Source of the DNA: Mesotaenium endlicherianum
Taxonomy: Eukaryota
Direction: 5' to 3'
Length of the DNA stretch: 59,218 nucleotides
NCBI GenBank assembly: GCA_009602735.1
Contig: WELA01002483.1
Location: 165,003-224,220, forward strand
The translations under genes and the position numbers were made by a program. Shown in pieces: positions 22,984 through 59,218 of this stretch. How positions within the stretch are numbered: the first letter of the stretch is position 1; each line of letters starts with the position of its first letter. The notes under the pieces were generated by a model. That model did not search any database and was not told the DNA's origin. It was given only the letters and a program-made list of their open reading frames with translations.

Positions 22984-23981
22984 GTTGGATCTAGAGAGCA
23001 CTAATTGCTTCTTGTGCAATGAAGAACTGAATGACTTTTGCAAGTATAGTGCTATTTTGAGGTTGTCTTGAGATTTTGCACAGGTACTTTCATCTGTTGA
23101 TCTTTGAAACTTAATAACACTTGATGCATTTTCTGTCATGTATCACAAATCTTGATTTGAAACATGCCTTTGTTTCAAATCTTCAATTAGCACATGGGGC
23201 CCATGGCTTTTGTCTATAGATCCCCCCTTATTGTCGTATACTTCAAATGCTCTGGAGTTGTTATCGTCCTAGATGACCAATGCTACCAGGGGATGTGGGC
23301 ATATTATTGACCATAAACCAAGCTCTCCTCCATGTACCCAGAGAGGGCCAGATGAGACGTAAAACGACTCCTAACTTGATCCAAGTAGAAGTCTTCAATT
23401 GCTCTCATGCCCCCAATTGTGTAGAGCACAAATAAGCGGCAACATCTACATGTAAATGAATGAATTGTCACCTGAGATATCAACATGGAGACTGCAGTCC
23501 AAAGCAGGTCCCTTGGAGATTGTGCTTGAACCCACTGATCACAGCAGCAAGAGGCATGCCTCTCCTCGATATCAACATGGGATGCTTATATGTTGTGCTT
23601 TACGTGAATAATTATATGCCTCTAAGTTTACATCAACTACATTAACAGCTATACTGGAGCTATAAATTTGTATGGCATGTCATTATAGGGGTCAACACTA
23701 CTAAAGAAACCCAGTTTGAGGTCCTCTAAAAAACCCTAGTAGGGTGGACTAAATGAGGCAACTGTCTTAAACTCCTCCTGGCCAGCTCTATGCTGATTCT
23801 TGTTCTCTATATTTAACAACACTCATATATTGGTATTGTGTCTTTGCGAAGTTTGACACACTACTTACTAAAAGTCTACAGACTCGTATAAAGCTTAGAT
23901 AAGTAAAGATCGAACACAATGCACGTATACATCTTAATTGATTATATGCTAATGCTTACCAGTCAGCACTTATGGACAGTC

Positions 23982-26900: not shown

Positions 26901-27266
26901 CAGGGAAGAGGCTTGCGCTGATTCGAGGGGAGGGGGGGAACAGACAACTCCAGAGGTGGACAGACATGCGTTCAGACATACAACACACACGTGACCCTTC
27001 CCTACTCGTACAAACCACGTGCAGGCCCCCCTGCATTTGCACACTGTCAGGAAGACGGGGTTGTGCATATGACGGAGGCGGAGGCTCCAGACAAGATGGC
27101 GCGAGGAGCCAGCTGGCAACGAGGTTGCTGGAGAGGGGCTGCCACTCACGGGATTCAGTGCCAGGAGCTGGTCCAGGGTGATGCGGAACATGGTGTGGAT
27201 GAGGTAGCAGGTGTCGTTCTTCTGCACCTCGTAGCTGCCGCTGTCCACGTAGCTCAGCGCTGAGAG

Positions 27267-27308
<42 letters not shown>

Positions 27309-35998: not shown

Positions 35999-36782
35999 AT
36001 TAGCTTTTCTCTCGCCAGCAACTGGAAATCACATACAAGGTTAGAGCAGAAATGATTGTACAATATGTCGCGTAAGCTAAGAGATGGGAACGACGTCTGC
36101 CGGTTGAGTCCAATGCTGAGTTGTAGTACTTTCATCAATCATTCACTTCATGCAATAACAAGGTACACCCAGTCTCATGCAGACACGCACTCCTTGTAAC
36201 AACTGGAAGATAGCACAAGCTAACTTGTGCTCCAGATCGAGTCCTATCACCGGGGTATTGCATGCTCATTAGCGCGTTATTCTGCAAATTGAAGATAGAC
36301 ACGGACTGTATGCGAATCCGGAGGGTCGCAGTTGGTCGCAGTACGCGAGACCGAGAGTAGGGCCCCGCTTGGTCCCGCCTCCCAATTGTCTTCCCGAGAA
36401 ACTGCAGGGCCCACGGGTCCAGGGCTAAGAGCATGCGGTCGGTTGAGGTCTGTACAGTTTCAAGCAGTTTTAGGTACGTAGATTGGTTGTGACATGTGCT
36501 TGACGCTGCTATTTGCTCATCGTTGCCGCGGGAGAACATGTTAGAGGCGAGGCAAATATGAGGCTGGAACATCGGAGTCCGCCAGAGTCCGCACACAATT
36601 GTATCTCCCCCGAATGTGGTTAAACATAGTGTTTTTCCAGACAAGAACTGTTATCTTGGAGGTCAAGATACCATCGACAACAGTCGTCACCCATCAACTT
36701 GTACCAACGGAAGCCGAGTCCCGACACGGTGAAAAGTCAGGGCTCACTTCACGAGTTACAACTTACAAGTTTCAAGTTACGA

Positions 36783-37270: not shown

Positions 37271-37562
37271 CAGGCCCCAGGATTCGACAATAGTCGCGGA
37301 TTTCGGAAAATTTCGGAACATCCTCTGGCCTGCTCTGGGAGACGGTCAGGGTTTCGAGAACATCCGACAAAATTTGGTAGGATTTCTAATGACGTAATAA
37401 CATCCCACGACAATTTTTAAAGAAAAATAGGAAATTTTGGGATTTTACGCGACATCCGCTCCCAAGGACCAGGATTTTTTCCGACATAATCTAAGATTCT
37501 TCATGCTTTTAAAACATCCAAAAACCCGAATAACATAAATTTAATTCGAATCCTGGGGCCTG
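37271..37562. mobile_element. Non-autonomous hAT-type MITE, copy 2 (292 bp), inverted relative to copy 1
   Basis: Same 17-bp TIR; 8-bp TSD CTGTCGAG at 37263-37270 and 37563-37570; interior is a diverged reverse complement of 22687-22983. Confidence 0.9.
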
Positions 37563-37634: not shown

Positions 37635-38841
37635 AGGCGTCTTCTGGTATCTTGCACCTCGTGCGGTCGTGCCACTTGGCGGGACTCGTTTTGCCGTATT
37701 GCATGTATATGCCTGTCCAAGTCAGTCCAAGTCTGCGTTCTGGCCAGTGGTCAGACGTGGCAGATAGCTTTCACATGACCCCCAAACTTTTCTCAAGGTG
37801 GCACACTGTGGCACACCTCTTTAAAGAAGAGCAAAAGCTTGCACTGATTCATCTAGCTTCACACTATCATCGAGGGTGTGGCGAACAAAGTATCTGAACA
37901 GATGTACTTGCATTTCTGAATTGTAAAATGCAAAAACGGTGTCTTTACCATGCCTGCCAAGCTTTTAAAGAGGCGAAGTTAATCACATCTTTAACAACCT
38001 CACTCGATCCTCAAAGAGAGACATCTTGCTGTGCAAAAAATATTTTCGTATAACTATAGTTGCTATACTTCTAGATTCTCCTGCCCTGAGTTTGTAAATT
38101 ACCATGTTGCAACAATCACAAGCAATGAATGCCACTTTGTCAAACTACTATATATTTGTTGTCGGACCGTGGAGCCGATAAAATATACAAGCGTTTTTCA
38201 GACGTGATACATGAGATGTCAAATGCTGACAATTTATATCAGATTGGCTGTCAAGCGGCTTCACGTTATGTGAACAGGTTGCACGTTGCATATTCATTAA
38301 GTTCCTTGTGGATCATGTTCCTTGTGGAGCACATTGATAGCAGCAGAAGAAGCAGCAAACTTAGGAGTTCACGCACAGCAAGTTAGGCATGAGTACAAGC
38401 CTACCGCCAACGTGGGAAGCTGGAAGTTTCACATCTTTGACGCTGCAAAGCCAGGGCTACCAAAAAAGCTCTAAGAGCTTAGCTGGAGCTGCAAACTGGT
38501 ACAGCCGGAGTGTCGAGTAAGACGAGCTACTAAAGGGGCAATGCAGTTGATCCTCTCAAAAAACCCTACTAGGGTGGACTGAACGAGGCAACTTTTCATC
38601 GACTCCCCCTGGCCAGCGTTATGTCCATTGTTGCTCTCTTAAGTTACAGCAGAATACTGGCATGTACATTTCGTCGATATGCCAGTACTCTGTTGTAACA
38701 CTGCACCTCACTGACATTCTCTTGCAGGACCTTGGCTGACTTAAGATCAAACACACAGGCGCGGGTCATCGTCTCCACGACATGCTTCCTCTCACCATTC
38801 ACCACTCACAGACGGTGCCAAAATTATGCTGTTGAGAACGC

Positions 38842-40094
38842 TTACGGCAGACACACATTGAGGCCGATGTACAGCGAGCCTGTCCGGCAGTTGACCCCGT
38901 TATTTAACGACCGAAAGAGTGCCACGTTGCGGTTGAACCTATGGTAAATGACGGAGGCACACGTGTCGCCCCTGTGGATTGTATAATACTTGCGGCATGT
39001 GGCGGCGCCTTGTTGGACAAACCCCCCCAGGCAGACCTGATGGCGGCAGCAGCAGAAAGGGCAGATGTCAGCGACGGCATCAGGGTCTAAAGAGTCAGGA
39101 CGTCCGTGCGCACGAAAAAAAATCTCGTCAAAATTTCATGCTTCATGCGTCCATAGCCCTGCTCCTGCGGTGCATTTACCGGGTGCCAATCGGCTGTTCA
39201 TTGATGAGCTCAGTGGAGCAAAAACACATGCCCTCTCCTGAGCCCCTCTCGAGGGTGGTCTCTAAGGGGCTCTCCAAACTGTCACAGGCGCGAGTTGTTA
39301 AATCAAAACGGAAAGACAAGATTGCAAGAGACCAATCTCCACGGGTCTTTGTCGTACGCGGCAACTACAAGGTGGAACTCCATCCCACATTGGTAGACCA
39401 CTGTGGACTCCATAGTGCCCGAGGGGCATGTCACCGCTGCAAGTATGCAAAGCAGACGCGTTCAGTCCTTTCCGGACACCCATATGCGCACACACGCTAT
39501 GCCTCCACTCTCGAGTGCCAATAGCACAGCGACAGCATTCTGGGACAGGCATTTGTCGGACAGTGCAATTAGTGACCCTGGGCCATAGCACGCAAGCATT
39601 TTCCGCCGGCACTGCGCAGGGAGGTCACCAGCCAGAGGACACCTGCTGGGCTACAGAAACCGCAGGGAGCAGCACAGGAGCTTGTCAAGCTCAAGGTCTT
39701 TGAAGCGAGCGAGCTCTCGTCAGTCACCGCCGGCGTTGCAAACGAGTAGAGCGCAAGAGTCAGAACGCGTGTGGGCTGGAGAGTGCATGTATGTGCTTGC
39801 GGCGTGTGTGTCGACGTACCTGCTGGCCGGGCAGCGAGAGTCCCTTGGTGGGAATCAGATTGGAGCAGTAGATGCCGGGGTTTAAATAGTAGAATCGTGC
39901 AGGTCCCAGCCTGTACTGGGTCCAGATTGACTGACAGGTATCGCCGGCCTCCACTGCCATGTAGTCCACACACTCGGGAGCTTCCAACATCCTATCGCCA
40001 GCTTGCACACAGATCTGCAGTCACACATTGAGGGCAACACATAGAAACATTCAGCTCCAGTCGGCATACGCACACCCATATATCACCCATACAG

Positions 40095-40147
<53 letters not shown>

Positions 40148-41222
40148 CTTGAACTAAAAGGAGCAGCTCCTTGGAACTGGAGCAGCTAATGGCTTGGAGA
40201 AGCCGGCACATCGGCAGGTACCATGTCGTCACACACTGCAAGCAAAAGGAAGTGCTTACTGCACATCTCAACAACCATGCCAGTGTTTAGGTCACTCGGG
40301 CCTCCTCCTGTTCAGCAGACAGTACAAATATATGTGTGCCTTTTCATGTCACAAGGTTCTTCTCTATGCCACATGTGTGTGTGTATCTGCATGCATATAT
40401 CTTTGCGTGTGCTGCATGTAGTTTGGACACAAGTACACGCGTGTGCGCAAGGAATAAGCAGGGTACGAGGCAAGCTTGCTCTTCCAGCCACAGCATCCTT
40501 CTCGAAAGGTGCACTAGCACATCAGAAGTTACACTACGACCACGAGCAGCAGCAGTGCTTCTCACGACGTGCCGCACTTCAGCGCAATCGTCTGCCCTCT
40601 GAAAGCTTCTCCGTCCCAGATGGGCTCGCCCCAGCAACAGAAGACCTCCAACAGAAGAAACCGCACGAGTTACCACCAGAATGAGCTACCCTGGCCCTCA
40701 GAGAACATCATGGCAACGTGACAGAGAGACAGGTGCTTTCCAGCAGGAGCAGCTGTAATGTCGGGCAGCTAGCTCCAGCCACACAGAACATGAGGCGACA
40801 GGGCACTGACTTGGTTTCAGAGGAGGGGAGAGAGGGGCCAGCTGGCGGTGAAGAACACCTTGGGAGAGGGAGTGGAGCTGAGGGCGCTATGCAAAGGAAG
40901 GAGGGGCTCACCTGCTGCCCCGGTTGTAACTGCTGGCAGTTGAGGCCGGGATTCAGCTCCAAGAGCTCCACATTGTCAAACACCCCGGCGATTGACCGAC
41001 ACGTGTCGCCCTGCAAGCAACGCACACCACCCGCGATTTCGTAGGGCAAAGTCACACCCGGAGGGAGAAGGCACAGCCGCGGCCGCATAGCTTAGACGCG
41101 CCCATCACCAAATTGGCTCCGGACGGTACTTTCTGGAAGACCACATGCAGCTCGCCAGTGCGGGCTCATGCCTCTACGGATTGCGAGCGCGCGTGCACAT
41201 GCACACGCGCCCACGCGCGTGT

Positions 41223-41254
<32 letters not shown>

Positions 41255-43329
41255 ACCTCGTGGCACTGCATCTAGCTTGCCATGGAGCCTTGCTCTCTAA
41301 GTTTCATGATTCAAAGGCCAGGGTAGTGCTGAGCTCACAGGCGCAACGGAGTAGGTGACGCCGCAGCCCTCACTGTTGTTCCTGTAGACCACCGCCAGGA
41401 CGACTCCTGGCGTCGGATGGGGCGTGCACCTCAGGTTCTGTCACAGAAGAATGGGAGAGCATGAAGCTGACTGAAACCAGCTGTCCTTGTGCCTACGAGA
41501 GGAAGAGGCAAGCCTGCGCAATTGATAGCTTCTAGATCTGAATGCTCGTTAATCAGAACCACTGCAGTGCGGAGGCTCTGTTGCGAGTATGGGAACGTGA
41601 AAGTGCTGCGACAGCGTCAATCTCGCGGCAGAGACTGCAGTCCCCATCTGTTTGCAGATTGACAGAGATGGAGAGCATTATCCAGACGCAGACATCATTG
41701 AGCACCGAGAGAAACTGGTGGGCGGAGACAGAATGCGTGAGAACTGGACAGTCAGGCATACAGAGATGTGCGCCAAAAATCAGAGTCCCTGAACACACGT
41801 GCATGTGCAGCAGCCCCCACGTCTGCACAATGTCGGGGCGTCGCAGTCAAGCTTAGAGCGGCGGCGGAGTCTTCAGACACAGTGGTGCGACATGCCAGCT
41901 GGCAACGAGGGTGCGGCGGGGGTGGCACTCACGGGATTCAAGCTCAGGAGCTGGTCCAGGGTGATGCGGAACATGGTGTGGATGAGGTAGCACGTGTCGT
42001 TCTTCTGCACCTTGTAGGTGCCGCTGTCAACGTAGCCCGGGTCTGCAGGAGGCGGCACGCACACACACGCAAAACGCACACACACGCACGCGCGCGTGCG
42101 CGCGCGCCCGTCTGGATGCTTGAGAACAAAGCGTCAGCAGGCGCATGCTCGTGCGCCACAACCCGGGCCACATGCAATGACATGCCGCATCGCAGCTCCA
42201 GCTTGCGCCCAGTCAGGCAGCACAGCAGGGGCACTTGCACGGCTTTTCCACTGTTGCGCATCTCACGAACAAACTCTCTGCTTCTCATTCTGCCCCCTTC
42301 GGGACGGGTCTCTGGCCAAGGGCACGACAAACACATGCACACAAGAAAGGCCAGAGATCGACGAACCGCTGCTCGCTGGCCCGCCTGCACCGCCTCGTGG
42401 CAGATGTACGCGATGAAGAACCCAAATCCGACCACGCCCCTAACGTCTTGTACTCCAGACAGAGGTCGGGTGGTGCGAGCGAGGGGTGGAGGGCCGCACT
42501 CACAGGTGGCACACGTCGGCTGCAGGTTCAAGAGCTGCGTAACAAAATACCCAAAGGGGCAGATGCACGTGTAGCTGCCCCGCCCGTCGTCAATGCACGT
42601 CCCCACCTTGCACGGGTTGAACGTCGAGAAGGTGCACGGCCGCGCTGCACATACCCGCCCACCACGTACGTGCCAGGTGGCAGCAACGGTTAGAGGGTCA
42701 CATGTGACCAGAGAGCAGCATAAGCGATTGCTGGTGTCGGCGCGCCCAACGCTGAGGACCCTCAGTAGGCTCAGACAGTGAATCAAACGTCAGACAAACA
42801 ATACGCAGAGGCTGGATGATCACGTATAGCACGTTCACTCACATCTACACGCCGCACCAGGAGCCGATTGGCGGCGCTGGAGTCAGAGGTCAGCGGCGAC
42901 ACAAAGCGAGGGGTAACAGGGCAGGCCTGACTTCCCGTAAGGAGCACCGAAAAGTGCAATGGCAGGGGAACTGGCGCGTCAGACCACACCTTCCGGTGCA
43001 GGTACCAAGCATGGGGGGGCTTAACAAATTAAGCCGGGCCAAGCGACGTCAGGCCCCCAGCAGGTGAGGTCGCACGCTTCACAGGGCTGACGTCAGCACA
43101 GCTTACCAGGAGCGCAGGACTGGGAGCCGTCGACGTTGCTGACGGCCACGAACTGGTCGGGGCACATGCACTCGTAGCTACTTCCCGCAGGAATGCAGGT
43201 CCCGCCCCCGCAGGGGTTGATGCCCCCGCACGGGCTGCTGGCTGCACACCACCAGAAGAATGGAGCAAATAGGACCAGACATACGTATGTGGGCCTATAT
43301 GTAAATGCGTGGTTTGATGTCGCGGGAGA

Positions 43330-43380
<51 letters not shown>

Positions 43381-46300
43381 TNGCGAGCACCGACCCGCGA
43401 GGACGGGGTAGGAGGCGGGCGTGGCGGCGACGCCACAGATGCCGGGGCCGCCCGCGATGGCCAGGCGCATGTACCCGCCCTCGCCCCAGCTGGCGCCCCA
43501 CGAGTTGCGGATGATGAGGTAGGGGCGCGGCGTGTTGAGCACGTAGCCCACAAGCAGCACCGCGTGGTCCACCATCTCGTCGGCATAGCACCCGGGGTCC
43601 GCAAACAGGCCCTGGCGGGAGACACCAAGGCGAGAGTGAGAGAGAGTGTGAGTGGTAAAGAGAGTGAACGGGAAGGGCGGGGGAGGGACAGACAGAGAGA
43701 GGCAGAGGGAGGTGGGATAGGGCGCAGACGACTCACTCCTTTGTAATTCACGAACGAGTCCTGGCTGCCTTCCACGTGGACTACAACAGGCTGCCGCTGC
43801 ACTGCCAGCAGGAGACCGAACCAGCCGTAGAAGTCGACCTGCTCCCACTGGGCAATCCCGTACTTGCCCAGCTTCTCCTGCAGGCACACGCAAGCTATCC
43901 AAGTGTGAACACCAAATGTTTAAGATCACTTTCATTGGGTTGGTAAGCTTCCCATAAGTGAAGACTTGCGTGCAGACAGACATGCACATGCCATGAGTAG
44001 ACACACGTACCGGGGCAGATGTGTACATTCACGCCAGAGCAGCACACAAGGATATAAAGAATAATGCAGTTATGCTCCGTTTGCAACTACTTATGTTTGT
44101 TCAAGTCATGCACTAAGTTTTAGGGGAGGTTTAATCACTGGCATTCAGATGTTTCAGGCGTTCAACAAAGCGACTCATGAAATCCACTCCAAATTTCAGT
44201 CAATAAATAAATGTGACTGAACGACTGTCGTGCATGCCATCACTTTCAGCTGTTACTTCACGCGTGTTGCTGTCGTAAATGCAGGCATTCAGTAATGCAG
44301 ACGGTCCAGTCATGACTGCCTATACAACCAACGCAATTGTTCTACAATCGTTCATTCACTAACGCCAAACAGTCGGTTTCGACCACTCCTCCAGACCTGT
44401 CTCAGAAGTCCTTATTGTTCATCTCACGCCAACTTCTTCAAGCAGGCAAAGGCATAATTGCTCTCATCAAATTAGCACACACAGCTCAAAAAGATCAGAG
44501 CGACATCTATTTGCCTTTATTCACGGACATGCGAATGTATGTTACTCTACTCCACTGCAACCTATGTTTGCATCGGCATTGCTTTCAAAAGTTGCAACAC
44601 ACCGTTGCTGCATCTCCACGACATGCAAAGATATGTACGCATGCACACATAGACAGGCAGCCAGGCAAAAACTGCATCCCAGAAACAAACTGCGAGACCA
44701 CGCATATCACACGTCCTTCTTTCTCTTACTTTGTCGGCCGCACATTTGGACAGCTCGGTCCCCCGGTAGGGGTAGGCGGCGCTCGTGGTGAGGCCTTTCC
44801 CGCCCGCCGCATAATCAAACGCTTCGCCCGGCCACCCCCCCGCGCACGCGCCGCTGCCCGCCTGGCAGTCCAGCACCTGCTGCTCGCTGGCCGACACCGC
44901 GCCCGCCCCCGGGTTGGTGATGGAGAACGCGCTCTCGATGGCGCCCACCGCCGCAAACGCCCAGCTGGCACCTGGCAGAGGTGGCATACCCAGCAAGCCA
45001 AGGTCAGCATGGTCCAGGCTGAGAAGACGGGGATGAAATAACGCCACACGAGATCACAGTGGCATTCTAGGACGCGGAGAAAGTCGGTCTAGTACACTGG
45101 CACCAGCCAGCTCCTGATGTTTGCCGCACGCGCGCAAACACGCATGCAGAGCGTATAGTATCTACATGTATATAAAAGTTGTAGAAAAATACATGGAGGG
45201 GCCACAAGAATTACACACACACAAACACACAGACACACACACACAGGCGTGCACGAGCAGTCAGGAGGCAAATGCACTTCCGCTGATGGAGCACGGGCCA
45301 AGGATACGTGGAAGGCCTGATAAACGACACGTGGTTGCTGCTCTGATCGCAGAAGCATGAGGACCCGCCCAGCTTGAGGCCCCACCCGAGACCTCAGGCC
45401 CTCCGCCCGCCCCCCCCCCCAAGCCCAGCACGTCCCTACAGCAACAAAAGTAGCTCTCCTGAGCAAACCCTCCAATCATGGTAGGTGCTCTGCGTCACAC
45501 AGGTGTCGCATTTGTAGCGTGCCAGATACAGGAGCTCAGGCTCATGGCTCTGCAGTTTGGGCCAGGGGCCAATGATCGGGAACTGGGCCAAGTCTGGGCC
45601 AGGGTGTGTGCGCAAGTTCCAGTGGGGGGCCTTACCGCAGCGCAGCTGGTCCTTGACGGGGGGCAGCACGGCCTTGCCCTTTGGCTGGCGCCAGTCCACG
45701 CTGCTCTGGATGCTCCAGTCCACACCGCTGCTGTTGGTGCCGCCCGAGAACCCGTAGCTGGCGTGGCGGAACCCCGGGTTGAAGTGGCGTGAGGGCGCAG
45801 CCTCTTCAGGAAACACGAGGCCTGTCACGTGCTGCAGCAGCGCGGGGGGGGCTTGCGGCGGAGGGGGGGCTGCAGGGCCACAAACAAGCAAAGACAAACA
45901 ACCCAAGTACTATGTGTGTGTGTGTGTGTGATTATTGTACGAGGGAACCGGAGAGGCGGATGATAGGACGGCGCAAGAAGGAGCCGCGCCGCCCTTATCG
46001 GTGCAGGTGGTGCACACGCAAACGCTGCTCAAGATAAGAGCCCAAGGGAGGAGCGGATGTGAGACAAGAGGGTCCTCCCAGGAGGGTGGTCCTCCCACAG
46101 GAGCGCATCTTGATTGCCCCAACACCTGGCATCAAGCAGCGGAACCCCTAGAGCCCTCAACTCTCGCCATGTGGCAAAATTTACAGGGCTTCCCAGAGTG
46201 CAAGGTATCGATCCCTTCTGTGCCTTCATAAATTTGCGCAGAGGGGTGGCGCTGGCTGCTATGAATATCTGCTCTTTTGACCGGCTGCGCACTCGTTTCT

Positions 46301-49300
46301 CTCATGCCTAAGAATGATGCTGCGGTGGACGACTTCTTTCCTGCGACACCACCATCGCTCACCAAGCCGAGCTCACAAACTGTGCAACATAGAGTGCGAG
46401 AAGCCGCGCCCAGAGCATGACCAAATATAAAGTGACACCCTCCTCTGTGCCTCCACTCAGAGGAAAGAAAACTGATTTGGAGCAAGGGATTCCCCAGAAG
46501 CACAAGCCCACGAAGAAGTGCCCACCAGTAATTTCCATGCAGGAGTTGACTTGCGGTCCTATAGTGAAGCCGGCGAAGCAGAGGCAGGTGGGCGTGGTGC
46601 TGTTGAGGTAGCACTCGCCGCCCGACTGGTTCTCACTGCCCGTCCCGCAGATGGAGTAGGTGTCGGCCCCACAGAAGGCCGCGCACGCCGCCGTCGTGCG
46701 CTGGCGGGTGGCGGGGCACGAGCCGCGGTTTGTGAAGCAGTTGTCGGAAGCGCATGCGATGGACCCGTTAAGAAACTCCACATGGGCGCTGCCTATCAGG
46801 TAGTTTTTGTCTGCGCGGACGACACCTGTCCGCGTCTGGAAGCGTGGGAACTCGCCCGTCAACTGGTTCGACGAGAAGTCCCTGACACACACAGGAGACA
46901 CATGCGCGCACATGTGCACAGGCACACAGGGGACGCATCACACACAGAGACACAGACAATCCACATAAGGAACACGTGGGCACACACAAGAACGCGTGTG
47001 AGCGATAACCACATCGACAAAGACAAGTCATGGCAAGCGTGCGAGTCCTCCTCTCTTCTGACAGTAGGATCAGGGCCATCGAGATGCACACGAGTGGACT
47101 GACCCTTCACAGAATGCAACCTCTTCCTTCAAGTACCGAAGCTCCTGAAGGTGGTGCCGTCCCACGCGAAGCCGAGCACGACCTTGCCGGAACAAGAGGA
47201 GAGGATCAGAGGGGCCAAACTCTGGCAGCGTCAGTCCCCTCCTTCCACCAGACCGGGAGTCAACAACACAGCCCAGACACCGATGCCTCGGTCCTAGCAC
47301 ACTTCTCACGGCAGCTCCGCAGCATGCAGCCACGCTGGCAAGCAGCAAGCCTTTAAGGGGGGGGGCTGAGCCCCCGGCACACGGTACCCGCTCCGCGCAA
47401 GGTGCGGCGAGAGACGGCCCAAAAAACAAAGCTGCATGACGGTGCCGTTCTACCAGCACCAGAGGCTTCAGAAAGCGTGTGCTCCTCGTGTTCCTCGTAA
47501 GGCAACACGCTGCCCAACTGGAAGATGTGACGGGAGGCAGGGTGCGGGCGGGGAATAGGCAGCTAGCTCGCTCACTCACAGTAGTCTCAGGCGATCCAAG
47601 CTCCCCACGCAGAAAGGGAAGCTTCCATAAAACAGGTTTCCCTGCAGCTGCCTGCCCCCCCCCCCCGCCCCCCCCGCCAAACAAAACGCGCACACACACA
47701 CACACAGACATATAACGTTACATCATGCTAGATGACAACGCCTCAGGTATAGAGGCAGCATCTAAAGAAGCAGTGGCGTACGCAGGATGTGCCCAGCACT
47801 GAACATCAGCAGAAGGAGAGGCCGCATGGAGGGGACCCTAGGAGATATTAAATAGCTGTGGACCCGGAACGGCAACCCATGCGGACGTCCAGGTTCCAGG
47901 TGGGCAGTGGTGCCGCTTCTTACAGGCTGGTAATTCTGACGAGTTTGCACAGTTCAGTGCGGATGTGGCCGGTCAGCTGGTTCTTCTGCAGGTGCCTGCA
48001 TCAAACACCCCCCCGCCCCCCACCCTCCCCAACAAAAAACCCAATGCCGGACATGTTCAGACCCCTTCTGCAGCCTTAGGACGCACTGGCTCTTGAATCT
48101 GACGCCTGACGCGCTGACCCAGCTCCGGAGCTTCAGCGGCGCCAATGCAAGCAAGCACTCTGGCCGCCTTTCCGGCGAGTAGGAGGCAAACAAGTAGCAG
48201 TCAGAAGAAGCAAGAGAGGACTGCGCCCAAACCCACACCCACATCCACCGTCTCCCCTCAGCTGCCGGCACCGCCTCTGAGTGAGCCCCTCCACTTCACC
48301 AAACCCCTAAACCCTCGACTCTACGACTGAAGGAGTAGGCCCATCTCCAGGGGCAGGCAGATGGGCCCGACGCGTGGCATTAATCCAGCCCCGGATTTCG
48401 CACATGGCAGGCACTTGAACATATTTGAAGCACGCACATGATGGGTTGTGAGATAGACAGAGCTGGTAGGTTCAGCCAGTGAGGGGTCTCGAGCGTCAGC
48501 TTCAAGACAGCCTAATGTGGTTGAAGAGGCTGCCACTTGGCCTTTGTCTCCAATTCTTGACAGTCAAACCCCCGGCGCAATCTAATGCGTAATGAATAAG
48601 CCTGTCGTGAAGAGCGTTGCACTTGCCCCTTCACCTCTTCATTGCCCCCGCGGGTGACGCAATAAGGCCCCTTAGCCAAGGGACGGGCGAAGATGAGAGC
48701 CGCGGCGGATAGACATATGGGGAGGAAGCACGCAAAAACCCTGGCGGGGTTTGGGCTTGGACGAAGGTGGAGAGGGAGAGGAGACACCTATCTCAGATGC
48801 ACTCCAAGAAGGCACTCATTTTCTTGTCCCAGAAACTAATGAAGGGGCCGCAGGCTGGCCCCAAACTTACGCAGGGGAACAACTCGTCCAAGAAGTCACG
48901 ACACTCGGTGCACACAAACATGTCCCAAACCCCCTTGCCGTACCTAGCGCCACCATATGCAAAAACACAACGTCGACCGGAAGTCGCATGCGTTCAAAGG
49001 AGGAGGGGGGGTGAAAACCCTGCCATCCCTACAGTACAGTTCCTGGTGCTCTGGTGCACTTGACAGCGAGCCCGCCCACTTGGCCACTGCATGTGCAGAG
49101 AGGGGGAGGAAGAGTGCTGGGCCTCACAGCTGGGTGAGGTGGGTGAGGTTGCCCAGACACTCGGGGATGCCGCCTGTGAGCTGATTCTGCGCCAGCTCCC
49201 TGCCGCCCCCGCCCTCCCCACCCCGTTTGAAAATGCTGTCAGGATACCAGCTACTTCGAGCCCCTTTCAATATGAGGCTGCTATAGGCTTTTGAGGTCTC

Positions 49301-51440
49301 TGGCAGAGCGTACGAGTAAGAGTTGCTGGAAGTTGACTAAACACTGCCACACATCGCGCGTTGCACCAATCGTTCGGCAAGCTGAGCTAGTATACTCTCA
49401 TCCTGCAAGTCTCCTCACACCCCTGTTGACGAGTCCGTTGGCAAGGGCACCTGAGAGCATCCTGGAGCGCTGATGCGGGCCATCTGTGGCTGTCAGTCCC
49501 TCGCACTGCGCATGCAGCCTCTCATGCTTGGAGCCCGGTCATACAGATGCACTCGGGGCCTCTATAAGATAGTTATATGTTTTGTGTCTCAAGTTGGAGT
49601 GGGGGAATCTTAGACGACAGACTGCAAGTACTCAAGTACTCAGGGTCTCTTGTTGGGCAAGGTTTATGCGGTAGGAGCTGCTGGGCATTTACAGGGAGGT
49701 GAGTGCGCTGAGGCGGCATATTCCTGGGGGTATGCTTCCTCTCAGCTTCGCCTTGCTCAATTGCCTGCAAAACACGCATGACCCCAAAGACACCAGGCCC
49801 CATCAGACGCCCCTCTCCCTAACAAATACGCATGTCAACACACGCTCAAGTGCTTGCAAACGGGCGCGCGCACATACGCGCCCACACAGATACACACAGA
49901 CACACACACGCGCTACATCATTTGGATGCACACGCGTGGCCTTGACCAAGAAAGCCATGCGTGTGTTTGTAGGCACAGACGCGCCTACACATGGTGCTTA
50001 TGGTCTTGTATGTCCACAGTCTGGAGTGCCGCAACTTCTCGTGTGCGAGATACACCCCCTCTGGTCCACATTCAGAGCCCTTCTGCGAGCTACCCTACTG
50101 CACTAGAGAACAGGCTATGCTTCTTGCGTGGGCGGATACAGCCTCGATGAAATCATAGGGGAACTGTGAGGCAAGGAGTCATGTCAACGCAAAGCTCGAA
50201 ATGTGAACAATCGAACAATGGCCTGCCTCGTGCGAGGCGCTCTGAGGCATAACATCTAGGGTTCACAGAAGATGTCCGACCCCCTCCTATGATGTGTGTG
50301 ATGTTTTGCTTGAGAGGGAAGGGACAGCTCTAGGGAGAGGACTGCCAGTGAAAGTGACGGTTAGTCTCTGAGTGCGAAATGGGATGCAGCAGCATGTCCA
50401 CCCCTCACGCTAAAGTGTTTAATGGTGAGTGTAAGCGGCACGTCCAAACTCACAGCAGCGTCAGGCTGCGCAGGAACTCGATGGCGGGGGAGATGGTCCC
50501 GCGCAGTCCTTGGCCCACCACATCGCTGCCCCCAATGCATCGTGCACGCAGTGTCATCATTGAGTGAGAATGATTAAGAAATTTTGAGAAGGCATCAAGA
50601 TTCAGGTGCAGGGGGCGTCAGACATGTCCAAGCACCAGATGCATGTTGCTGTCAGGTAAAGGAGTGGGAGAAAGCTCAGAAAGTTTGACGCTTCTTCGGG
50701 CACATGCCCACACATACATGGTGACAACATGACCGGCCTTGTTGCAGCGAACACCGGAGTACTTGCCGCAGTAAGCTCCCTTCCATGTGACAGTTGGCCC
50801 TGAGTTGTTGAAGTCATGCCGCAAGCGCTGTAGCGCAGCCACTGACATCCCAAGGAAAACAAATATTTCAGGCTCAGTTGTAGAAATGTATGGTATGCTT
50901 CTACATGATTTCAATACATATATATATACATATATACATATATATGTATATATGTATATAAATATATATTTATAAATGCATACATTGACCTGATGCATGC
51001 CCACAAACACATGACTACCCTATGAAGCTGGAGAGCTAGGGGCTTCATGGCTAACTCTTCATTCAACAACAAGATGGTGAAATATTCAACTCCCTCAAGT
51101 GTTCGGCTTCACAAGTGCACTTCTTTCACCTACTGAGAAACGAGGTCATTAAACACTGTCGCTAACGAATTAATTTCAGTACCTAGTCGCGACTTTTTCT
51201 TTCACAAAAGCACAATACAGCTGACTCGGGGACTGACAAACCTAAAAGCAGCTATTGCAGGGAGCTGCCAGTGTGAGTTTGCGGTTCCACCCAAAGTGAC
51301 CGAACAATACTACTCAGAGGAAGTGGTGCTATCAAAGAGAGTGGGTCTGAAAACGCACGGTCGGTTTTGTGAAGCAAAACAGCAGAAGCATATGCCACGT
51401 GGAAAATTAGCAGAAGAACTGCTGAAAATGGTTGCACCAT
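38842..51440 (-). CDS. Secreted mosaic protein, copy B (~909 aa), tandem paralog of copy A with the same architecture. 19 exons (5'->3'): 51359-51440, 50718-50841, 50454-50525, 49693-49764, 49128-49199, 47924-47995, 47580-47651, 46526-46881, 45636-45869, 44730-44971, 43737-43877, 43395-43611, 43107-43241, 42504-42644, 41933-42042, 41339-41437, 40912-41010, 39820-40014, 38842-39036
   Basis: Signal peptide MVQPFSAVLLLIFHVAYASA. Exon sizes are identical to copy A except exon 9 (+9 nt) and the last exon (-15 nt). C1A motifs VKDQLRC|GASWAFA, DHAVLLVGY, IIRNSWG. No in-frame stops found (2730 nt). Confidence 0.9.
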
Positions 51441-52122
51441 GGTAAATAACTCTTCAGCCACCCCACATATAGAACAGAGCAGATGCAACTATATCAATGC
51501 CTGGCGCGAGGTGAAAAGCTTGTTACTAGATGTGAAGGTCAAGTCCAATGCTTTCTCATGCTCGCATCTAAGACCTTACTTCAAACTTCAAAGGCTTGTG
51601 CTACACGAATGTAATGTATGTATTTCGTCTGCATCATCAGAGCACGTCGCGGAAATCCTATGTCGGCCATGTCTTGCTATGAACAAGCCTTGGAAGTAGG
51701 CACTGAGCCCAAGACTGAGCCGATCAACACGTCACTGAGGCATGCTCACAATACGACGCATTTTTACAACCGTGAACGTCATTTGAAGTGAATTGAAGCG
51801 AGCACATGAAACTCGCATCGAACTGTATGGAACGGCAGAGAACTCGATACTGTCCCATGTGAACATACACAGGAACTGTAAGAAACAAGCCCTTCTAGAA
51901 GTCAAGAACGATAATGAGATCTTGACTTCTCTCGACCAGCTGTGACCTGTCGTCACGACTCACGAGAAGTCAAGGCGCACGAGACTCGAGTGTAATTCAC
52001 ACAAATCACCTGCCTCTGCCAAATTTCACCGACCAGCACCGACTCAGTCGGTGGGGTATGCCTCATTTTAGATAGTTGATTCCAGTTGATTTACTTCCTT
52101 TTGTCTTCTAAAGGTTAATTCT

Positions 52123-52379: not shown

Positions 52380-53890
52380 ATCTTCCCCAGTAAATCACCT
52401 TATGGCGCACCAACCTCTTTGTTAAGAAAAGGGATGGGAGTATGCGGATGTGCGTAGATTACATGGCTCTTGACAAAATCACAATAAAGAACAACTATGC
52501 TTTACCCAGAACTGAGGACTTGCTTGATACCCTGTCTGGTGCTAAAGTGTTCAGTAAGATAGATCTGAAGAGTGGTTACCATCAAATCAGAATTGCTGAG
52601 GGGGATGAACACAAGACAGCCTTCCGCACACATTATGAACACTATGAGTTCAACGTGATGCCATTTGGACTGCCTAATGCTCCTGCAACCTTCATGGGTG
52701 CTATGAACAACATTTTCAGATCTTCCTTGGATAAGTTTGTGCAAGTTTTCCTGTATGATATTTTAATTTTCTCTAAAGGTGAAGCTCAGCAGCTGAACAT
52801 TTAAAGACAGTAATGGACATTCTGAGAAGAAACCAGTTGTATGCTAAAATGAGCAAGTGCGACTTCTTCAAAGAAAGTAATGAATTTTTAGGCCAATTTG
52901 TTGCAGCCTTCTGACAAAATCCCAAAGGTTGGTAAGATAAAGCAGGAGTGGCATCCTGTGTTGTATGAGTCTATGAAATTTAATCCAGCGGAGATTAATT
53001 ATTCAGTGCATGATAAAGAGCTGCTAGCTATCATTCATGTGCTCAAACAGTGGAGAGCATACTTACATGGTAAAGCTTTTAAGGTAATTACAAATCATCT
53101 AGCTCTGACTCACTTTCAGAAAAAGTCCAAGCTGTTAAGGAGGGAGAACCGCTGGAGCCAGATGCTGGAGCAGTTTCAAGTCCAGATCGACTACAAACCA
53201 GGGAAGTTGAATCCTGCTGATACACTCTCTAGAAGACCTGACTTGCAAGAAAGGAACTTTAGTCAGCATGCTGTAGATAAAGTCCTTTGCGCACTCACTT
53301 CACTAAAGGTGAAAAAGTCCTTCCTTGAACAACTTAGGAAAGCCTACCTTTCTGACCCAACATATGAGCCCAACTCCACTAATGGTGTGTGTCTTGCTAC
53401 TGCACTTGGGTATAAGCTTAAGGGAGGGGTCTGGGTAACTGAAACCACTTCAGGCAGACTGAAGCTGGTCATTCCTAATAACTTGGAAATAAGGTCCCTT
53501 TAGTGAGTCAAGCACATGACAGTCTATTGGGTGGGCATTTGGGGCAGGCCAAAACTGTTGGCAAACTGGCAAAGCGTTATCATTGGGAGGGATTACCTCG
53601 GGAGGTCTTGAATTATGTTAAGTCCTGTGACCAGTGTCAAAGGAATAAGTCAAGGCACACACCACCGGGGGGCCTCTTACAACCGCTGCCCATCCCAGCT
53701 GGCCGCTGGGAAACAATATCAATGGACTGGGTGGTCACACTGCCACGAGTTGCCAATAGGCATGATTCGATATTGGTAGTCGTGAATAAATTAACAAAAA
53801 TGATCATTTTCTTCCCCACAATTGTCAAAGTAACTGCACTCGAAACAGTGAGCCAGTTCTACAGCCATGTAGTACGCCAACATAGGCTAC
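52380..53890 (+). pseudogene. Decayed Ty3/gypsy pol fragment (RT - RNase H - integrase N-part), same family as the minus-strand element
   Basis: Motifs [50 protein letters not shown]...GHLG...CDQCQRNK. Defects: catalytic FLDD changed to FLYD, frameshifts/stop near 52800 and 53500, ~325-bp deletion at ~52895 relative to 58589-58914, truncation at 53890 by an LTR. Confidence 0.9.
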
Positions 53891-54606
53891 TGAAATGAAT
53901 CGACTTACCAAATAAGCGATTAATAATTAAATAAAGATCTTTATATCAGCAAGTAATCTTGATGGCAATTTCCGTTAACTGGTTAAACGGCAAAGGACAA
54001 TACACTAGCAGTATACTCATAAGTCAAATGCGAGTAAACTAGCATCAATAATGCAAATCAGTAAACTCATACATAAGCAAGGTTAGAAGACAATGCGTAT
54101 CAATGGCTTCTCGCCTTGGATTCAGATCACTCTCAGTAAGCTGTACAAGAGAGTTGGCCTCGTTTTCGAATGCCGAACTCGAGAGCAATGCCTAGCATAT
54201 GTACATGGAATGAGTTTACTGTTCAACGGTCAGTGCGATGGCACCGCCTACCCGGGAGTTAACCACGTTGGTAGGACCTCGGTTAACCAAATCCACCGCC
54301 ATCTCCCATCATCCCGAATAGCCATCCATCATGGGGATGTCATCTGGCCATTCATCTAGCATGTCGTACTTAGATGCATATCAAGGCAGTACGCTGCTAC
54401 CGAGCACGGAAGTCAGCTGGCTGTCAAAGAATGTGTCAGCAAGCTGACTTAAGTTTACTTCAGCCTGCTGCTTTCGGCCGAGTCATTAAATTGATAATTA
54501 TGTAAAGTCCAGCAGACTGACTATTCACTAAAGTTTAGCAGGCTGAACTTAATTAACTATTAGATTTAAATGAATATTATATCCACTAATATACTGATTC
54601 ATTACA
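53891..54606 (-). repeat. 3' LTR (716 bp)
   Basis: Minus-strand start TGTAATGAATC right after the PPT. The other end reads TGAAATGAATC on + (11-bp terminal inverted repeat, 1 mismatch) exactly where the old pol homology stops. The partner LTR is outside the window. Confidence 0.8.
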
Positions 54607-54621
54607 ATCCCTCCAACTTAA
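54607..54621 (-). other. Polypurine tract (TTAAGTTGGAGGGAT) preceded by an 8-bp hairpin (54624-54642)
   Basis: Purine-rich tract immediately 5' of the LTR TG on the minus strand; hairpin TGTTGTCG-cct-CGACAACA. Confidence 0.7.
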
Positions 54622-54719
54622 CTTGTTGTCGCCTCGACAACATTAAACTGCAAAAGCTTTAAATAAAGAAACTGACCCTGACCAGCCTCCCTTACTGACT
54701 ATCTTTTCAGCCTGTCACC

Positions 54720-56396
54720 TTAAGGGGTGGTTCCTGGGGCTTCAGGATCAGGGGACGGAGATCTGGACCTAGATCTGGACAGCCCTCTAGGTCTGTCAGC
54801 TGGCCTTCTAAAGAACCCTGTTTGCTCTAAAGTTGGCCCTCGGGGAGAACGGAGGATGGTGGCCTGCTCTTCAACTATTTGGGTGTTGATTCCCACATAG
54901 ACAGGCATTCCAGTAGGATGCTGAAATACATTGGCTAGAGGTACATGCCCCTGAGCGGAGGGGGAGGCTGGCATACCTCTGGCCCACCCGCGTGTCCCTC
55001 TTCTGGCACCCCTGTCCTCTGGGGATTTCTGTCTGTGTCTGCTGCCCAGTACAGTCAGATCAGCTTCTTCCCCTGCTTGGGCAGGTGGGCTGGGGGAGCG
55101 AGCGCGGGGTCCAGTTGTCGCCATAACGGGGATCACATTCCACACACCTGATCGTGGTTCTTTAGGAAGTGCCACTGCCTGTCCCTGGGTATCCTGAGTA
55201 CCTGCTGCTGATGCTTCTCCTCTGCCTTGTTCTTCTTCCTCATCCTCCTCATCCTCCTCCTCGGAGAGAGTAGGGGTCTCGTCCACTAAGTCGTCCTGCT
55301 CCCTAGTAGACATGGAGTAGTCTACCGACCTCCCTTTCTTAGGGCGCGCTGGAGGTTGCTTGGCCTTCAGCCTACTGATATCTATCCGGCCTGCATTCTT
55401 TGCCCATTTGACAAAGGCATGCTTTCCCTTAGAGAAGTAGTCTCTTCCCCTCCTCCTATGTTCCTTGGTCTCTGCATTCATATTGCTCAGGCATCCATTC
55501 AGCCTGGGGTCCCAAGGGGCAATGTGAGGTGGTAGGATGAGATAGCCGTCTAGGCCATAGTGGAAGTCATCCGGTTGGGCTCGGTCACACTCCTGCTTCT
55601 TATTTGTGACGGTCATCCACCTCCAGTCTGTTGGCTGCTGGTAGTACTGGGGTCCGTGCTCAGCCTTCCTCAGTTTACACGGGAACCAGTGGGGAGAGAA
55701 CATCTGCTGTCCTGCTTCCCTGGCCAAGTACTCCCAGCTCCTTCTCTCAACTTCATTGTAAGCTGGCAGGAGTGTGAGGTAGAATACCGTATCCTTAAAG
55801 CTATCGGGCCGCATGCTCACCATCCGGATGAGTCTCTGATCTCCCACTATTCCCGGTATGGGGACCGGCTTGTCCTCTGAATCATCTGCGAGATACCGGG
55901 CCTGCTCTGCTGTATAGCCCACCATCTTAGCATAATCTTCGTAAAGGACCACGCCGGTGTGTGTCTCGATGTACCTGTCCAGTGCTGTAGCTCCTTCCTT
56001 CTGTAGCAGTGTTGTCTGTTCCAGCCTGTTGATCTCCTGGGCTGCCAGCAATGCTTCCTTCAGGTTATCGAAGTTTTGGCCACCCACCACAGTATACCTG
56101 TAAGTGGCCAAGCTCTTCTGTCTGTCCGCTTCAATCTTTTTTCTTTTCTCCTCTTCTGCCGCTGCCGCTTCTTCTTGCTGTTTCTTCTGTCTCTCCTCCT
56201 CAGCCTTCCTGAGGTTTTCCGCTTCCTGATCCTTCTTCCTCTGTGCCTCTTCTGCCGCCTCTTGTTGTTTGCGGACCCTTTCTTGTTCTCTCCTGGTGAG
56301 GGACGTCGCCGCCAGCTCCTTCTGGTATTGCTCCATTGTCCTCCTGGCTTCTTCTGCCTTGCGCTTTCTGTCCTCCTTTTGTGTGGTGGGCGCCAT
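54720..56396 (-). CDS. Retrotransposon extra ORF, 558 aa from ATG 56396, unknown function (coiled-coil N-terminus, aromatic-rich core, acidic/RS-rich disordered tail)
   Basis: Uninterrupted 1.68-kb ORF between the pol stop and the PPT, co-oriented with pol; no signal peptide or TM segment visible. Confidence 0.8.
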   Translation of the reverse strand: MAPTTQKEDRKRKAEEARRTMEQYQKELAATSLTRREQERVRKQQEAAEEAQRKKDQEAENLRKAEEERQKKQQEEAAAAEEEKRKKIEADRQKSLATYRYTVVGGQNFDNLKEALLAAQEINRLEQTTLLQKEGATALDRYIETHTGVVLYEDYAKMVGYTAEQARYLADDSEDKPVPIPGIVGDQRLIRMVSMRPDSFKDTVFYLTLLPAYNEVERRSWEYLAREAGQQMFSPHWFPCKLRKAEHGPQYYQQPTDWRWMTVTNKKQECDRAQPDDFHYGLDGYLILPPHIAPWDPRLNGCLSNMNAETKEHRRRGRDYFSKGKHAFVKWAKNAGRIDISRLKAKQPPARPKKGRSVDYSMSTREQDDLVDETPTLSEEEDEEDEEEEQGRGEASAAGTQDTQGQAVALPKEPRSGVWNVIPVMATTGPRARSPSPPAQAGEEADLTVLGSRHRQKSPEDRGARRGTRGWARGMPASPSAQGHVPLANVFQHPTGMPVYVGINTQIVEEQATILRSPRGPTLEQTGFFRRPADRPRGLSRSRSRSPSPDPEAPGTTP

Positions 56397-56663
56397 CCTG
56401 CACATGTAACCAGGGCACAAGTTAGTAGGATATGGACCTTTGTCATAGGGATTGCAGGAAGTATGTTAGTATTTAGTATAGTGGCTTCGCTGCTGTTTAC
56501 CTTACAGGATGATTGCTAAAAGTTGACGTAGTTGCGATGCGCTACACATAAACGTATGAGTGTGTTTTTATCGCTCTCGCTCACTAACTGTCATATATTT
56601 TCCCCTCCAACTTAAATGGAGACAGGACCGCCTGTCACCTTCCCGTGTCAACTGAAATGACAG

Positions 56664-59218
56664 TTATGGAGGGACGCTAGCGGCCCAAAGGTGGAACCGT
56701 GTCAACGCCCCTTTGGCATTGGGCAAGTGGTCCTTAAACTCCCAAGTGTCCCCAGAGGCATCGTAACCCTTCCATCGAATGAGGTATTTCATGACATATT
56801 TAGACGATCGACGGACCGAGCGAGCGTCTAAAATCTCATCGACCTCATATTCCTCAGGGTCGCCGTCCCGGACAGCGGGGACCGGTCCCGGTTGGACAGG
56901 GAACCGACCTGTGAACAGTGTATCACCTTTGATGTACGGTTCCAGGAAGGAGACATTAAAGACCGGGTGCCCCTTGTATTCAGCTGACATGTTCAGTTTG
57001 TAAGCATTCTGACCGACACGACGGACCACCGAATATGGACCGACCCAGACAGGGCCAAGCTTTTTCTTGACCACACCAGGGAGGTACAGGTGCTGAGAAT
57101 GCAGTTTGACTAAATCCCCCTTGGAAAATGTCAGTTCCCGACGGTGTTGATTAGCGTATTTTTGTTGGTTTTCTTGGGCCGTGTGCAAGTTTCGTTGGAC
57201 TTCTGACAGGGTGTCAGCAAACTCCTGAGTTAACTGGAGGGAGACCGGGTTGTCAATCCCTTCAGGGTGAGTTAAAGATTCCCCTAGCACATCTAGAGGA
57301 GACTTAGGGACTCTACCCAGGCTGAGTTCAAAAGGAGTTTTGCCCGTTGACGCGTGCACCGCACTGTTGACCGCAAACTGAATTTGAGGCAACAGGTCAT
57401 CCCAATTATCTTGTTTTTGGTTAATATATGCTCTCAGCACCTCCTGCAGAACTCGGTTAGTTCTTTCAGTCTGCCCATCAGTCTGAGGGTGGTTTGCTGT
57501 GCTGAGCAGCTGTTTGACTCCCATTAACCCCATTAAAGCTCTCCAGAACTTAGAGGTGAATTTTGAGTCTCTGTCTGAGATGATATTAGAAGGGAGCCCA
57601 TGTTGGCATACTACATGGTTGTAAAACTGTCTCGCTGTTTCGAGTGCAGTCACTTTGACAGTTGTGGGGATAAAAATGACCATTTTTGTCAGTTTATCCA
57701 CGACTACCAGTATTGAATCATGCCCGTTGGCAGTTCTTGGTAGTGAGACCACCCAGTCCATGGATATAGTTTCCCAGCGTCCCGCTGGGATGGGTAGCGG
57801 TTGCAAGAGACCTCCGGGTGGTGTGTGCCGAGACTTATTTCTCTGACACTGGTCACAGGACTTGACATATTTCAAGACCTCCCGGGGTAACCCCTCCCAA
57901 TGATAATGTTTTGCCAGTTTGCCAACAGTTTTGGCCTGCCCCAAATGTCCACCCAGGAGACTGTCATAAGCTTGACTCAGTAAGAGAGACCTTATTTCCA
58001 AATTATCAGGAATGACCAGCTTCAGCCTGCCTGAAGTGGTTTCAGTCACCCAGACCACTCCCTTGAGCTTATACCCGAGTGCGGTAGCACGACACATACC
58101 AGTAGTGGGACTGGGCTCAAATGTTGGGTCAGAAAGGTAGGCTTTCCTAAGTTGCTCAAGGAAGGACTTTTTCACCTTTAGTGAAGTGAGTGCACACAGG
58201 ACTTTATCTACAGCATGCTGACTAAAGTTCCTTTCTTGCAAGTCAGGTCTTCTAGAGAGTGCATCAGCAGGATTCAACTTCCCTGGTTTGTAGTCGATCT
58301 GGACTTGGAACTGCTCCAGCATCTGGCTCCAGCGGTTCTCCCTCCTCGACAGCTTGGACTTCTTCTGAAAGTGGGTCAGAGCTAGATGATCTGTAATCAC
58401 CTTAAAAGCTTTACCATGTAAGTATGCTCTCCACTGTTTGAGTACATGAATGATAGCTAGCAGCTCTTTATCATGCACTGAGTAATTAATCTCCGCTGGA
58501 TTAAATTTCATAGACTCATACAACACAGGATGCCACTCCTGCCGTACCTTACCATCCTTTGTGGTTTTGTCAGCAGGCTGCAACAAAATAGCACCCATGG
58601 CAAAATCAGAGGCATCAGTAACCACCTGCACCGGTTTGCTGGGGTCATACACGGCTAGCACTGGGGCAGAACAAAGGGCATCTTTAAGGGTCTGGAAGGC
58701 AGCCTGCTGCTCTTCCCCCCACACATACCCGATGTCTTTCTTAGTAAGGTCAGTCAGTTTACTGGCCTTTGTGGAATAATTCTCAATAAATCTCCAATAG
58801 TAGTTAGCCAACCCGAGGAAGGATCTAACTTCAGAGACGGACTGTGGTACTAGCCAGTCCCTTATGGTCTGGACTTTCTTAGGATCCATACTGATGCCCT
58901 CCTTACTGACTACGTGGCCTAAGAATTCAATACTTATCTTAAAGAAATCACACTTGCTCATTTTAGCAAATAAGTTATTTTTCTGTAGAGTGTCCAGGAC
59001 TGTTTTTAAGTGTTCAGTGTGCTGAGCTTCATCTTTAGAGAAAATTAAAATATCATCCAGGAAAACTTGCACAAACTTATCCAAATAAGATCTGAAAATG
59101 TCATTCATAGCCCCCATGAAGGTAGCAGGAGCATTAGTCATTCCAAATGGCATCACGTTGAACTCATAGTGTCCATAACGTGTGCGGAAAGCAGTCTTGT
59201 GTTCATCCCCCTCAGCAA
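56664..59218 (-). CDS. pol: Pol polyprotein (5'-truncated by window): RT, RNase H, integrase, chromodomain
   Basis: [55 protein letters not shown] (DDE), GPY module ([17 protein letters not shown]), chromodomain [19 protein letters not shown]. Confidence 0.97.

Follow-up and report, generated by a model that had tools for sequence, protein, structure and literature searches.

A 558-codon sense open reading frame between pol and the 3' LTR of an algal chromovirus: a possible spliced accessory gene with a predicted nuclear product

Extra open reading frames (ORFs) have been described in 3372 Ty3/gypsy elements, where they form 314 unrelated groups in the portion of the survey drawn on here (Neumann et al., 2019; PMC6317226). 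In the excerpts concerned, just 21% of the additional-ORF proteins match a known domain (PMC7264820; PMC6317226), the function of the 3' extra ORFs in plant-lineage retrotransposons is treated as an open question, and the sense 3' ORF of Bagy2 is reported to be spliced (PMC7264820). Among the chromoviruses, 18% of 782 Tekay elements bear a 3' ORF in sense orientation, and the same portion of the survey lists none for Chlamyvir (44 elements), Tcn1 (1500 elements), Galadriel, Reina, or CRM (PMC6317226). An earlier note on this DNA had held that chromoviruses typically encode gag and pol only; given the Tekay figures, this was overstated for chromoviruses in general, and it agrees with the listing for Chlamyvir and Tcn1. 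Two further kinds of retroelement-borne accessory protein invite comparison: CERV of the Caenorhabditis elegans element Cer1, a lineage-restricted protein of 517 aa made from a spliced RNA, according to the excerpted text (PMC10309623), and the proteins of Tekay 5' additional ORFs from sunflower and grasses, which in the passages concerned are of about 400 aa, with a few helices and long disordered proline-rich parts (PMC11728184).

The window, i.e., the whole 59,218-nt stretch of Mesotaenium endlicherianum DNA analysed here, contains a Ty3/gypsy element with the hallmarks of a chromovirus: RT, RNase H, and integrase in that order with a C-terminal chromodomain, followed by a polypurine tract (PPT) and an LTR with TG...CA ends (Table 1). 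The LTR limits at 53891 and 54606 are confirmed by piled-up read ends in the mapped sequencing runs, and reads from related copies have a primer site starting with TGG, one base past the LTR, which presumably corresponds to the initiator-Met tRNA. The chromodomain (YEV ... RWKGY) seems, as judged by eye, to retain all three positions of the aromatic cage, following the definition given in the excerpt of PMC3350952. In domain order, cage residues, and LTR termini, the element thus resembles Chlamyvir, Tcn1, and some Galadriel; however, set against the chromoviruses with group I chromodomains, its closest pol relatives are just 37–49% identical and bear no clade names. Closterium proteins, at 37–49% identity and with repeated domains, occupy all five leading places in the pol search; when the relatives are ranked by BLAST score, it is other proteins, at 47% identity, that lead. 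A literature search with subscription journals mostly outside its coverage returned nothing about extra ORFs in elements of the Closterium type.

The element has inserted into, and split the integrase of, an older copy of the same pol family, which begins within the RT and is not preceded by a gag. As separate observations on the surroundings, the last 437 nt of the intact pol (56664–57100) have a CpG observed/expected ratio of 0.86 against 0.34 in the remaining pol, a possible CpG-rich patch upstream of the spacer. The non-coding segment 51700–52380, between a host gene and the older pol copy, holds several CACGTG motifs. Further away, two tandem paralogs of a many-intron host gene lie on the minus strand about 14.8 kb apart (23700–36000 and 38500–51500); their translations were judged by eye to contain papain-like protease, EGF-like, and LysM-like segments. 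Protease-plus-EGF genes would also be in keeping with an alga of the Closterium type. An inverted pair of about 280 nt (22705–22983 and 37271–37545; 75–92% complementary) flanks the first paralog and, lying at the ends of the duplication, is possibly a small mobile element.

Table 1. Features of the element and its surroundings (window positions), and of antisense ORFs in related metagenome loci (positions within each locus)
Feature	Position	Strand	Remarks
Older broken copy of the same pol family	52380..53890	+	88-91% identical; integrase split by this element
3' LTR, 716 bp	53891..54606	-	TG...CA ends and 11-nt inverted repeat, 10/11 matching
Terminal PPT	54607..54621	-	directly adjoins the LTR
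12-nt direct repeat, copy 2	54710..54721	-	overlaps the ORF stop codon
Extra ORF, 558 aa	54720..56396	-	no homolog detected
ORF residues 351-558	54723..55346	-	acidic tract, then P/R/G/S-rich low-complexity tail
ORF residues ~100-345, aromatic-rich core	55362..56099	-	presumably folded; fold unpredictable without an alignment
ORF residues 5-101, E/K/R-rich long helix	56094..56384	-	likely charged single alpha-helix
Predicted 103-nt intron	56398..56500	-	donor AAG/GTAAAC, acceptor TGTGCAG/G, one base upstream of the ATG
13-nt stretch	56581..56593	-	possible LTR relic or internal promoter, suggested by one variant contig, by eye
Internal PPT copy	56603..56615	-	13 nt identical to the terminal PPT
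12-nt direct repeat, copy 1 (AAGGTGACAGGC)	56630..56641	-	just past the pol stop
pol	56664..59216	-	RT, RNase H, integrase, SH3, chromodomain; 850 codons open; 5' part beyond the window
Group I chromodomain	56694..56849	-	Pfam Chromo, E=2e-8
Antisense ORFs, metagenome loci	L015:6641-7171, L020:302-892, L053:5671-6156, L058:2839-3336, L063:2556-3017, L064:5273-5836	-	six-cysteine pattern

Between pol and the LTR, the minus-strand frame 56465–54720 runs for 581 codons without a stop, and the ATG at 56396 yields the 558-aa product (an alternative in-frame ATG three codons upstream, at 56405, would give 561 aa). This verifies the frame, start codon, and position of the intact, pol-sense ORF that the earlier note had pointed out. 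The remaining five frames over the same stretch contain 9–30 stops each, and when the pol-to-LTR region was simulated 2000 times from its dinucleotides, no run attained 558 codons (mean 131, maximum 372). The ORF is thereby a sense 3' additional ORF (eORF-3'F) in the established usage, whose size definition is at least 250 codons: it is sense-oriented, lies between pol and the 3' LTR, and is not a tandem repeat. It shares its position, orientation, length above 250 codons, and lack of homologs with the sense 3' ORFs of Athila, Bagy2, SIRE, and Tekay.

Extra genes of this sort have been described before; the protein itself is new. Word-based homolog searches with its core found nothing among 1348 candidates of lengths 319–1017 or among 1155 candidates of lengths 1018–2905; phmmer recovered no sequence at E <= 0.001 from 1.84 billion representatives, and the ESM Atlas was blank for both the core and the full protein as queries. 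None of 69 pattern matches in metagenome contigs, and none of three in viral contigs, proved related to the ORF, which also had no match among 121 pol-type proteins (120 of them the listed relatives) and 79 related loci. In domain libraries, the NCBIfam scan gave no match and PHROGs gave three matches, all at E >= 0.2. PDB sequence matches to ARL13B and ATP synthase b (E 0.2–0.35), and a Pfam match to Borrelia_P83 below the cutoff, all lie over the charged helix and were dismissed as effects of composition.

The same searches bear on the origin of the ORF. The locus is a nest of elements, with a possible LTR relic following the internal PPT, so the ORF might be conceived as the gag of a separately nested element or, alternatively, as a recently captured host gene. 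Against the former, neither a Gag capsid domain nor a CCHC zinc knuckle was detected at E up to 1, whereas nine of 15 downstream ORFs of related loci, used as controls, clearly matched the Ty3-type Gag in the same library; nor was a second LTR pair or primer site seen around the ORF. The nested gag that the earlier note had named as its own refutation was accordingly not found. Against the latter, the ORF resembles pol and not the host exons in fourfold-site GC (0.46 in the ORF, 0.48 in pol, and 0.77 in host exons, a host GC3 that is inflated because the host frames were picked by highest GC3, with two of the 16 blocks looking misframed), CpG observed/expected (0.39, 0.46, and 0.86), and NCG use (0.12, 0.10, and 0.37), even if the codon-preference correlations are weak (ORF-pol 0.37, ORF-host 0.25). 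Because its silent-site and CpG profile follows that of pol, the ORF is not a recent host capture, and the captured gene entertained by the earlier note falls away in this form; it has either long been resident in the element or was derived from another mobile element. Both the nested gag and the recent capture are largely refuted and highly improbable. Moreover, CpG and silent sites as depleted as those of pol, combined with a frame free of stops, argue for long residence under selection, and we consider it quite probable that the ORF is maintained by selection.

The region around the ORF has a composite anatomy. The 267-nt spacer between pol and the ORF contains a copy of the PPT, and a 12-nt direct repeat, of a kind not produced by chance in 500 shuffles, brackets the cassette; both features are new and set it apart from the plant sense 3' ORFs. 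Of the 24 sequencing runs listed, four were mapped, namely three polyA RNA runs and the contig set X9. The RNA label of X9 is a guess, and one record of 28.6 kb points to DNA. One X9 contig departs from our sequence at 56602, where, after the internal PPT, the contig goes on with TG and a 13-nt stretch that our spacer also contains, like an LTR start; judging from this single contig end, the spacer may begin with an LTR relic. The spacer has no similarity to the element's own LTR. A second X9 contig departs at 54646 into sequence that by eye resembles the post-pol segment, and overlapping X9 records at 54623–54746 differ by 1 and 11 letters, so that the 3' end comes in two or more versions. 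The RNA runs likewise have loose ends at 56679. Single contig ends of this kind suggest that members of the family differ in their 3' modules, one of which probably lacks the ORF; and because the loose ends at 54646 (X9) and 56679 (RNA runs) point to relatives with another 3' region, the gene may be dispensable.

Within X9, a 1475-nt contig spans 55185–56660 with two differing letters and with the ORF free of indels, its sole gap falling in the spacer. The ORF contig has a depth of 28.9, against 32 at the pol 3' end and 44 elsewhere on the pol contigs (the LTR has a summed depth of 110–270). This depth near that of the pol 3' end, and the lack of a Gag domain and of a membrane segment, support the non-env extra gene belonging to the element that had been supposed. 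These contigs also bear on another explanation, namely that the cassette is a passenger: a coding segment that recombination at the 12-nt repeat and the duplicated PPT brought in from another mobile element, and that is still open merely because the subfamily is young. A repeat-bracketed cassette with two PPTs, variant contigs that join other sequence at 54646 and 56602, and a near-identity in X9 that leaves little time for decay would all be expected of it, as would a mobile-element-like composition, which another element would equally confer, and the want of RNA reads over the ORF. Yet the ORF is complete: its ATG is well placed, the predicted acceptor lies at -2, and its stop codon falls 100 nt short of the terminal PPT; it bears no likeness to any known transposon protein; and the single pol-to-LTR indel in X9 lies in the spacer, outside the ORF. 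On balance, we regard a mere passenger as rather unlikely.

The ORF itself recurs in other sequencing runs: 20 of the 24 listed share at least half of the words of 53900–57200, and 14 have word shares of 0.66–0.86 (from five studies and five organism codes; the best may be the source sample). As the 31-mers of this interval that lie outside the ORF amount to 0.48, which is the share attainable without it, those 14 runs must contain ORF sequence. No RNA run appears among the holders in this word-share listing. Over 54745–56534, all three mapped polyA RNA runs have zero depth while the LTR and pol are covered, with 199, 246, and 166 mapped reads in samples of 6–12% of each run. As their LTR and pol reads are mostly 90–95% alike to our copy, they stem from diverged copies, perhaps without the cassette. 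The zero depth fits a silent gene and a strain with ORF-less copies equally, and lends no support to expression. Separately, RNA reads of the integrase region (56535–57966 and 58417–58577) mostly point to antisense transcription, provided that the libraries have the customary strandedness. Within 58417–58577, three X23 reads leave out 159 nt that are bounded by GT..AG on the plus strand; this spliced joint, being on the opposite strand and inside pol, was set aside.

The predicted protein divides into three parts. Its N-terminal helix (residues 5–101; pLDDT 70–90 in a single-sequence AlphaFold model) is 51% E/K/R, no more than 14% of its heptad a/d positions are hydrophobic, and opposite-charge pairs number 26 at i+3 and 25 at i+4, against about 13.5 expected from 5000 shuffles. 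Because hydrophobic heptad positions are so few and potential salt-bridge pairs are about twice as frequent as in shuffled sequences, a charged single alpha-helix is more likely than a coiled coil; thus, of the E/K/Q coiled coil of about 95 aa proposed earlier, the long helix stands and the coiled coil does not. Two basic clusters within it, RKRK (10–13) and KRKK (84–87), look like nuclear localisation signals. Beyond the helix, single-sequence AlphaFold gave no usable fold (mean pLDDT 45 and 34, the core at 34). The core has three cysteines in total and no clear metal motif, and is separated by a basic stretch from an acidic run (residues 351–400; net charge -12), after which the tail carries eight SP or RS clusters and terminates in RSRSRSPSP. 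The W/Y/P-rich motifs, acidic run, and RS tail quoted in the earlier note are all present in the translation. So is the reported want of a transmembrane segment: the maximal hydropathy in 19-residue windows is 0.73, and no signal peptide is found.

These features bear on the possible sites of action. The env-like position and orientation, together with the predicted splice acceptor, and a long rigid helix that could serve as a spacer, are compatible with a cytoplasmic protein that works with the virus-like particle as a chaperone, scaffold, or transport factor, i.e., a non-membrane analogue of env-like proteins. However, the protein has neither membrane segment nor signal peptide, and both its basic clusters and its RS/SP tail suggest a nuclear location, which makes a particle-associated role quite unlikely in our estimation. 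A nuclear location is, by the same localisation-like signals, somewhat favoured. Were it nuclear, the protein could act on chromatin, attaching to the DNA or nucleosomes of the element to counter silencing or to guide targeting, with the gene being real and spliced; the VANC proteins of Vandal transposons provide the precedent for anti-silencing in the excerpted source (PMC11728184). The combination of an acidic tract with basic clusters, the CpG depletion of the element, which is thus probably methylated, and the cage-intact chromodomain on its integrase are in keeping with such a role. In opposition to it, no DNA-binding, zinc-finger, or histone-reader domain was found in the protein; the three cysteines of the core form no clear metal motif; and no recurring target motif was evident in the LTR. 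A chromatin-level function thus falls on the unlikely side.

The sequence immediately upstream of the ATG suggests how the gene might be expressed. A predicted acceptor with a TACTAAC branch point lies directly before it, an arrangement that is new. The predicted intron holds two TACTAAC motifs (at 56471 and 56427, the nearer one 30 nt upstream of the acceptor), which are the only two on the minus strand of the entire window. Of 20000 simulations, 0.4% had such a motif between -45 and -15, a test made after the motif had been noticed. In the 4612-nt internal region, two [CT]AG sites have CTAA[CT] at that distance, one of them the acceptor of the ORF. The acceptor's form, TGCAG/G, is that of several host acceptors in the window; the host introns in the window do not use TACTAAC, and the motif therefore carries less weight. 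A junction at 56398–56500 is not among the joints in the four mapped runs. We nevertheless think it fairly likely that the ORF is expressed through this acceptor.

Our preferred, if tentative, reading is of a spliced, nuclear accessory factor that acts on the element's own unspliced RNA and promotes its export. The ORF would be translated from a spliced RNA that uses the acceptor just upstream of its ATG, joined to a donor either at 56500, behind a promoter in the LTR relic, or in a leader outside the window; the Bagy2 ORF offers a similar splice route. A strong acceptor within the genomic RNA would create a need to export the unspliced form, and a nuclear helper could meet it by binding that RNA and helping it out of the nucleus, the part that CERV plays for Cer1 of nematodes in the excerpted account (PMC10309623). 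A nuclear environment of RNA processing would suit the basic clusters and the RS/SP tail. Of the steps proposed, export has the least support, as it draws on this logic and on the anatomy of the protein, its rigid charged helix included, and not on homology. The searches also returned no recognised RNA-binding domain, which counts against this reading.

The comparison with known accessory proteins delimits this proposal further. As far as the excerpts on CERV go, it is like our protein in its similar length, helical N-terminal part, and KRKK signal, but differs in sharing exons with gag and in possessing a leucine zipper, a cysteine loop, and a G-protein-like domain; the analogy drawn here is one of function (PMC10309623). 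The Tekay 5' additional ORFs, on the corresponding portion of their description, are similarly borne by chromoviruses, combine helices with disordered parts, and are predicted to be nuclear; in contrast, they lie upstream of gag in elements with group II chromodomains, and no search returned any similarity (PMC11728184). Unlike the plant sense 3' ORFs, ours has no membrane segment, Athila ORF-1, Transposase_28, or plant mobile domain. Finally, the chromodomain of the element is of group I, a type whose clades (Chlamyvir and Tcn1) are without a listed extra ORF in the portion of the survey drawn on.

The distant relatives of the element in metagenomes, which come from mixed hosts, present a comparable picture. 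Fifty of 79 loci reach the end of pol, and 21 of these continue for at least 1.7 kb downstream: in nine, nothing but gag or pol belonging to a following or wrapped element is present (seven identified by Pfam and two by eye), 11 have no sense ORF of at least 250 aa within 4 kb, and one (L062) has repeat-like frames. An extra ORF between pol and the LTR is hence an uncommon arrangement, but of a described kind. In six metagenome elements, an antisense ORF of 154–197 aa directly follows pol, with a shared six-cysteine pattern and then a charged helix. It resembles a zinc-cluster protein and may, we assume, be equivalent to the antisense ORF of fungal elements such as Boty.

With neither relatives nor RNA reads nor a predicted fold to its name, the ORF joins the several hundred groups of extra ORFs already on record as a further orphan. 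Its significance lies in being intact, in a young element, without a membrane segment, and with a candidate junction, a combination that makes the env-like and the nuclear regulatory readings separable. The duplicated PPT and the flanking repeat, for their part, hint at how extra genes are gained and swapped. At its most far-reaching, and with decided doubt on our part, an algal chromovirus lineage could have independently evolved a retrovirus-like design with two tiers of genes and a swappable 3' module, in which an old PPT with an LTR-relic promoter, an intron, an orphan gene, and a new PPT would succeed one another. The product would then be a nuclear factor with a novel fold, governing the splicing or export of the element's own genomic RNA, i.e., an analogue of Rev in the green lineage.
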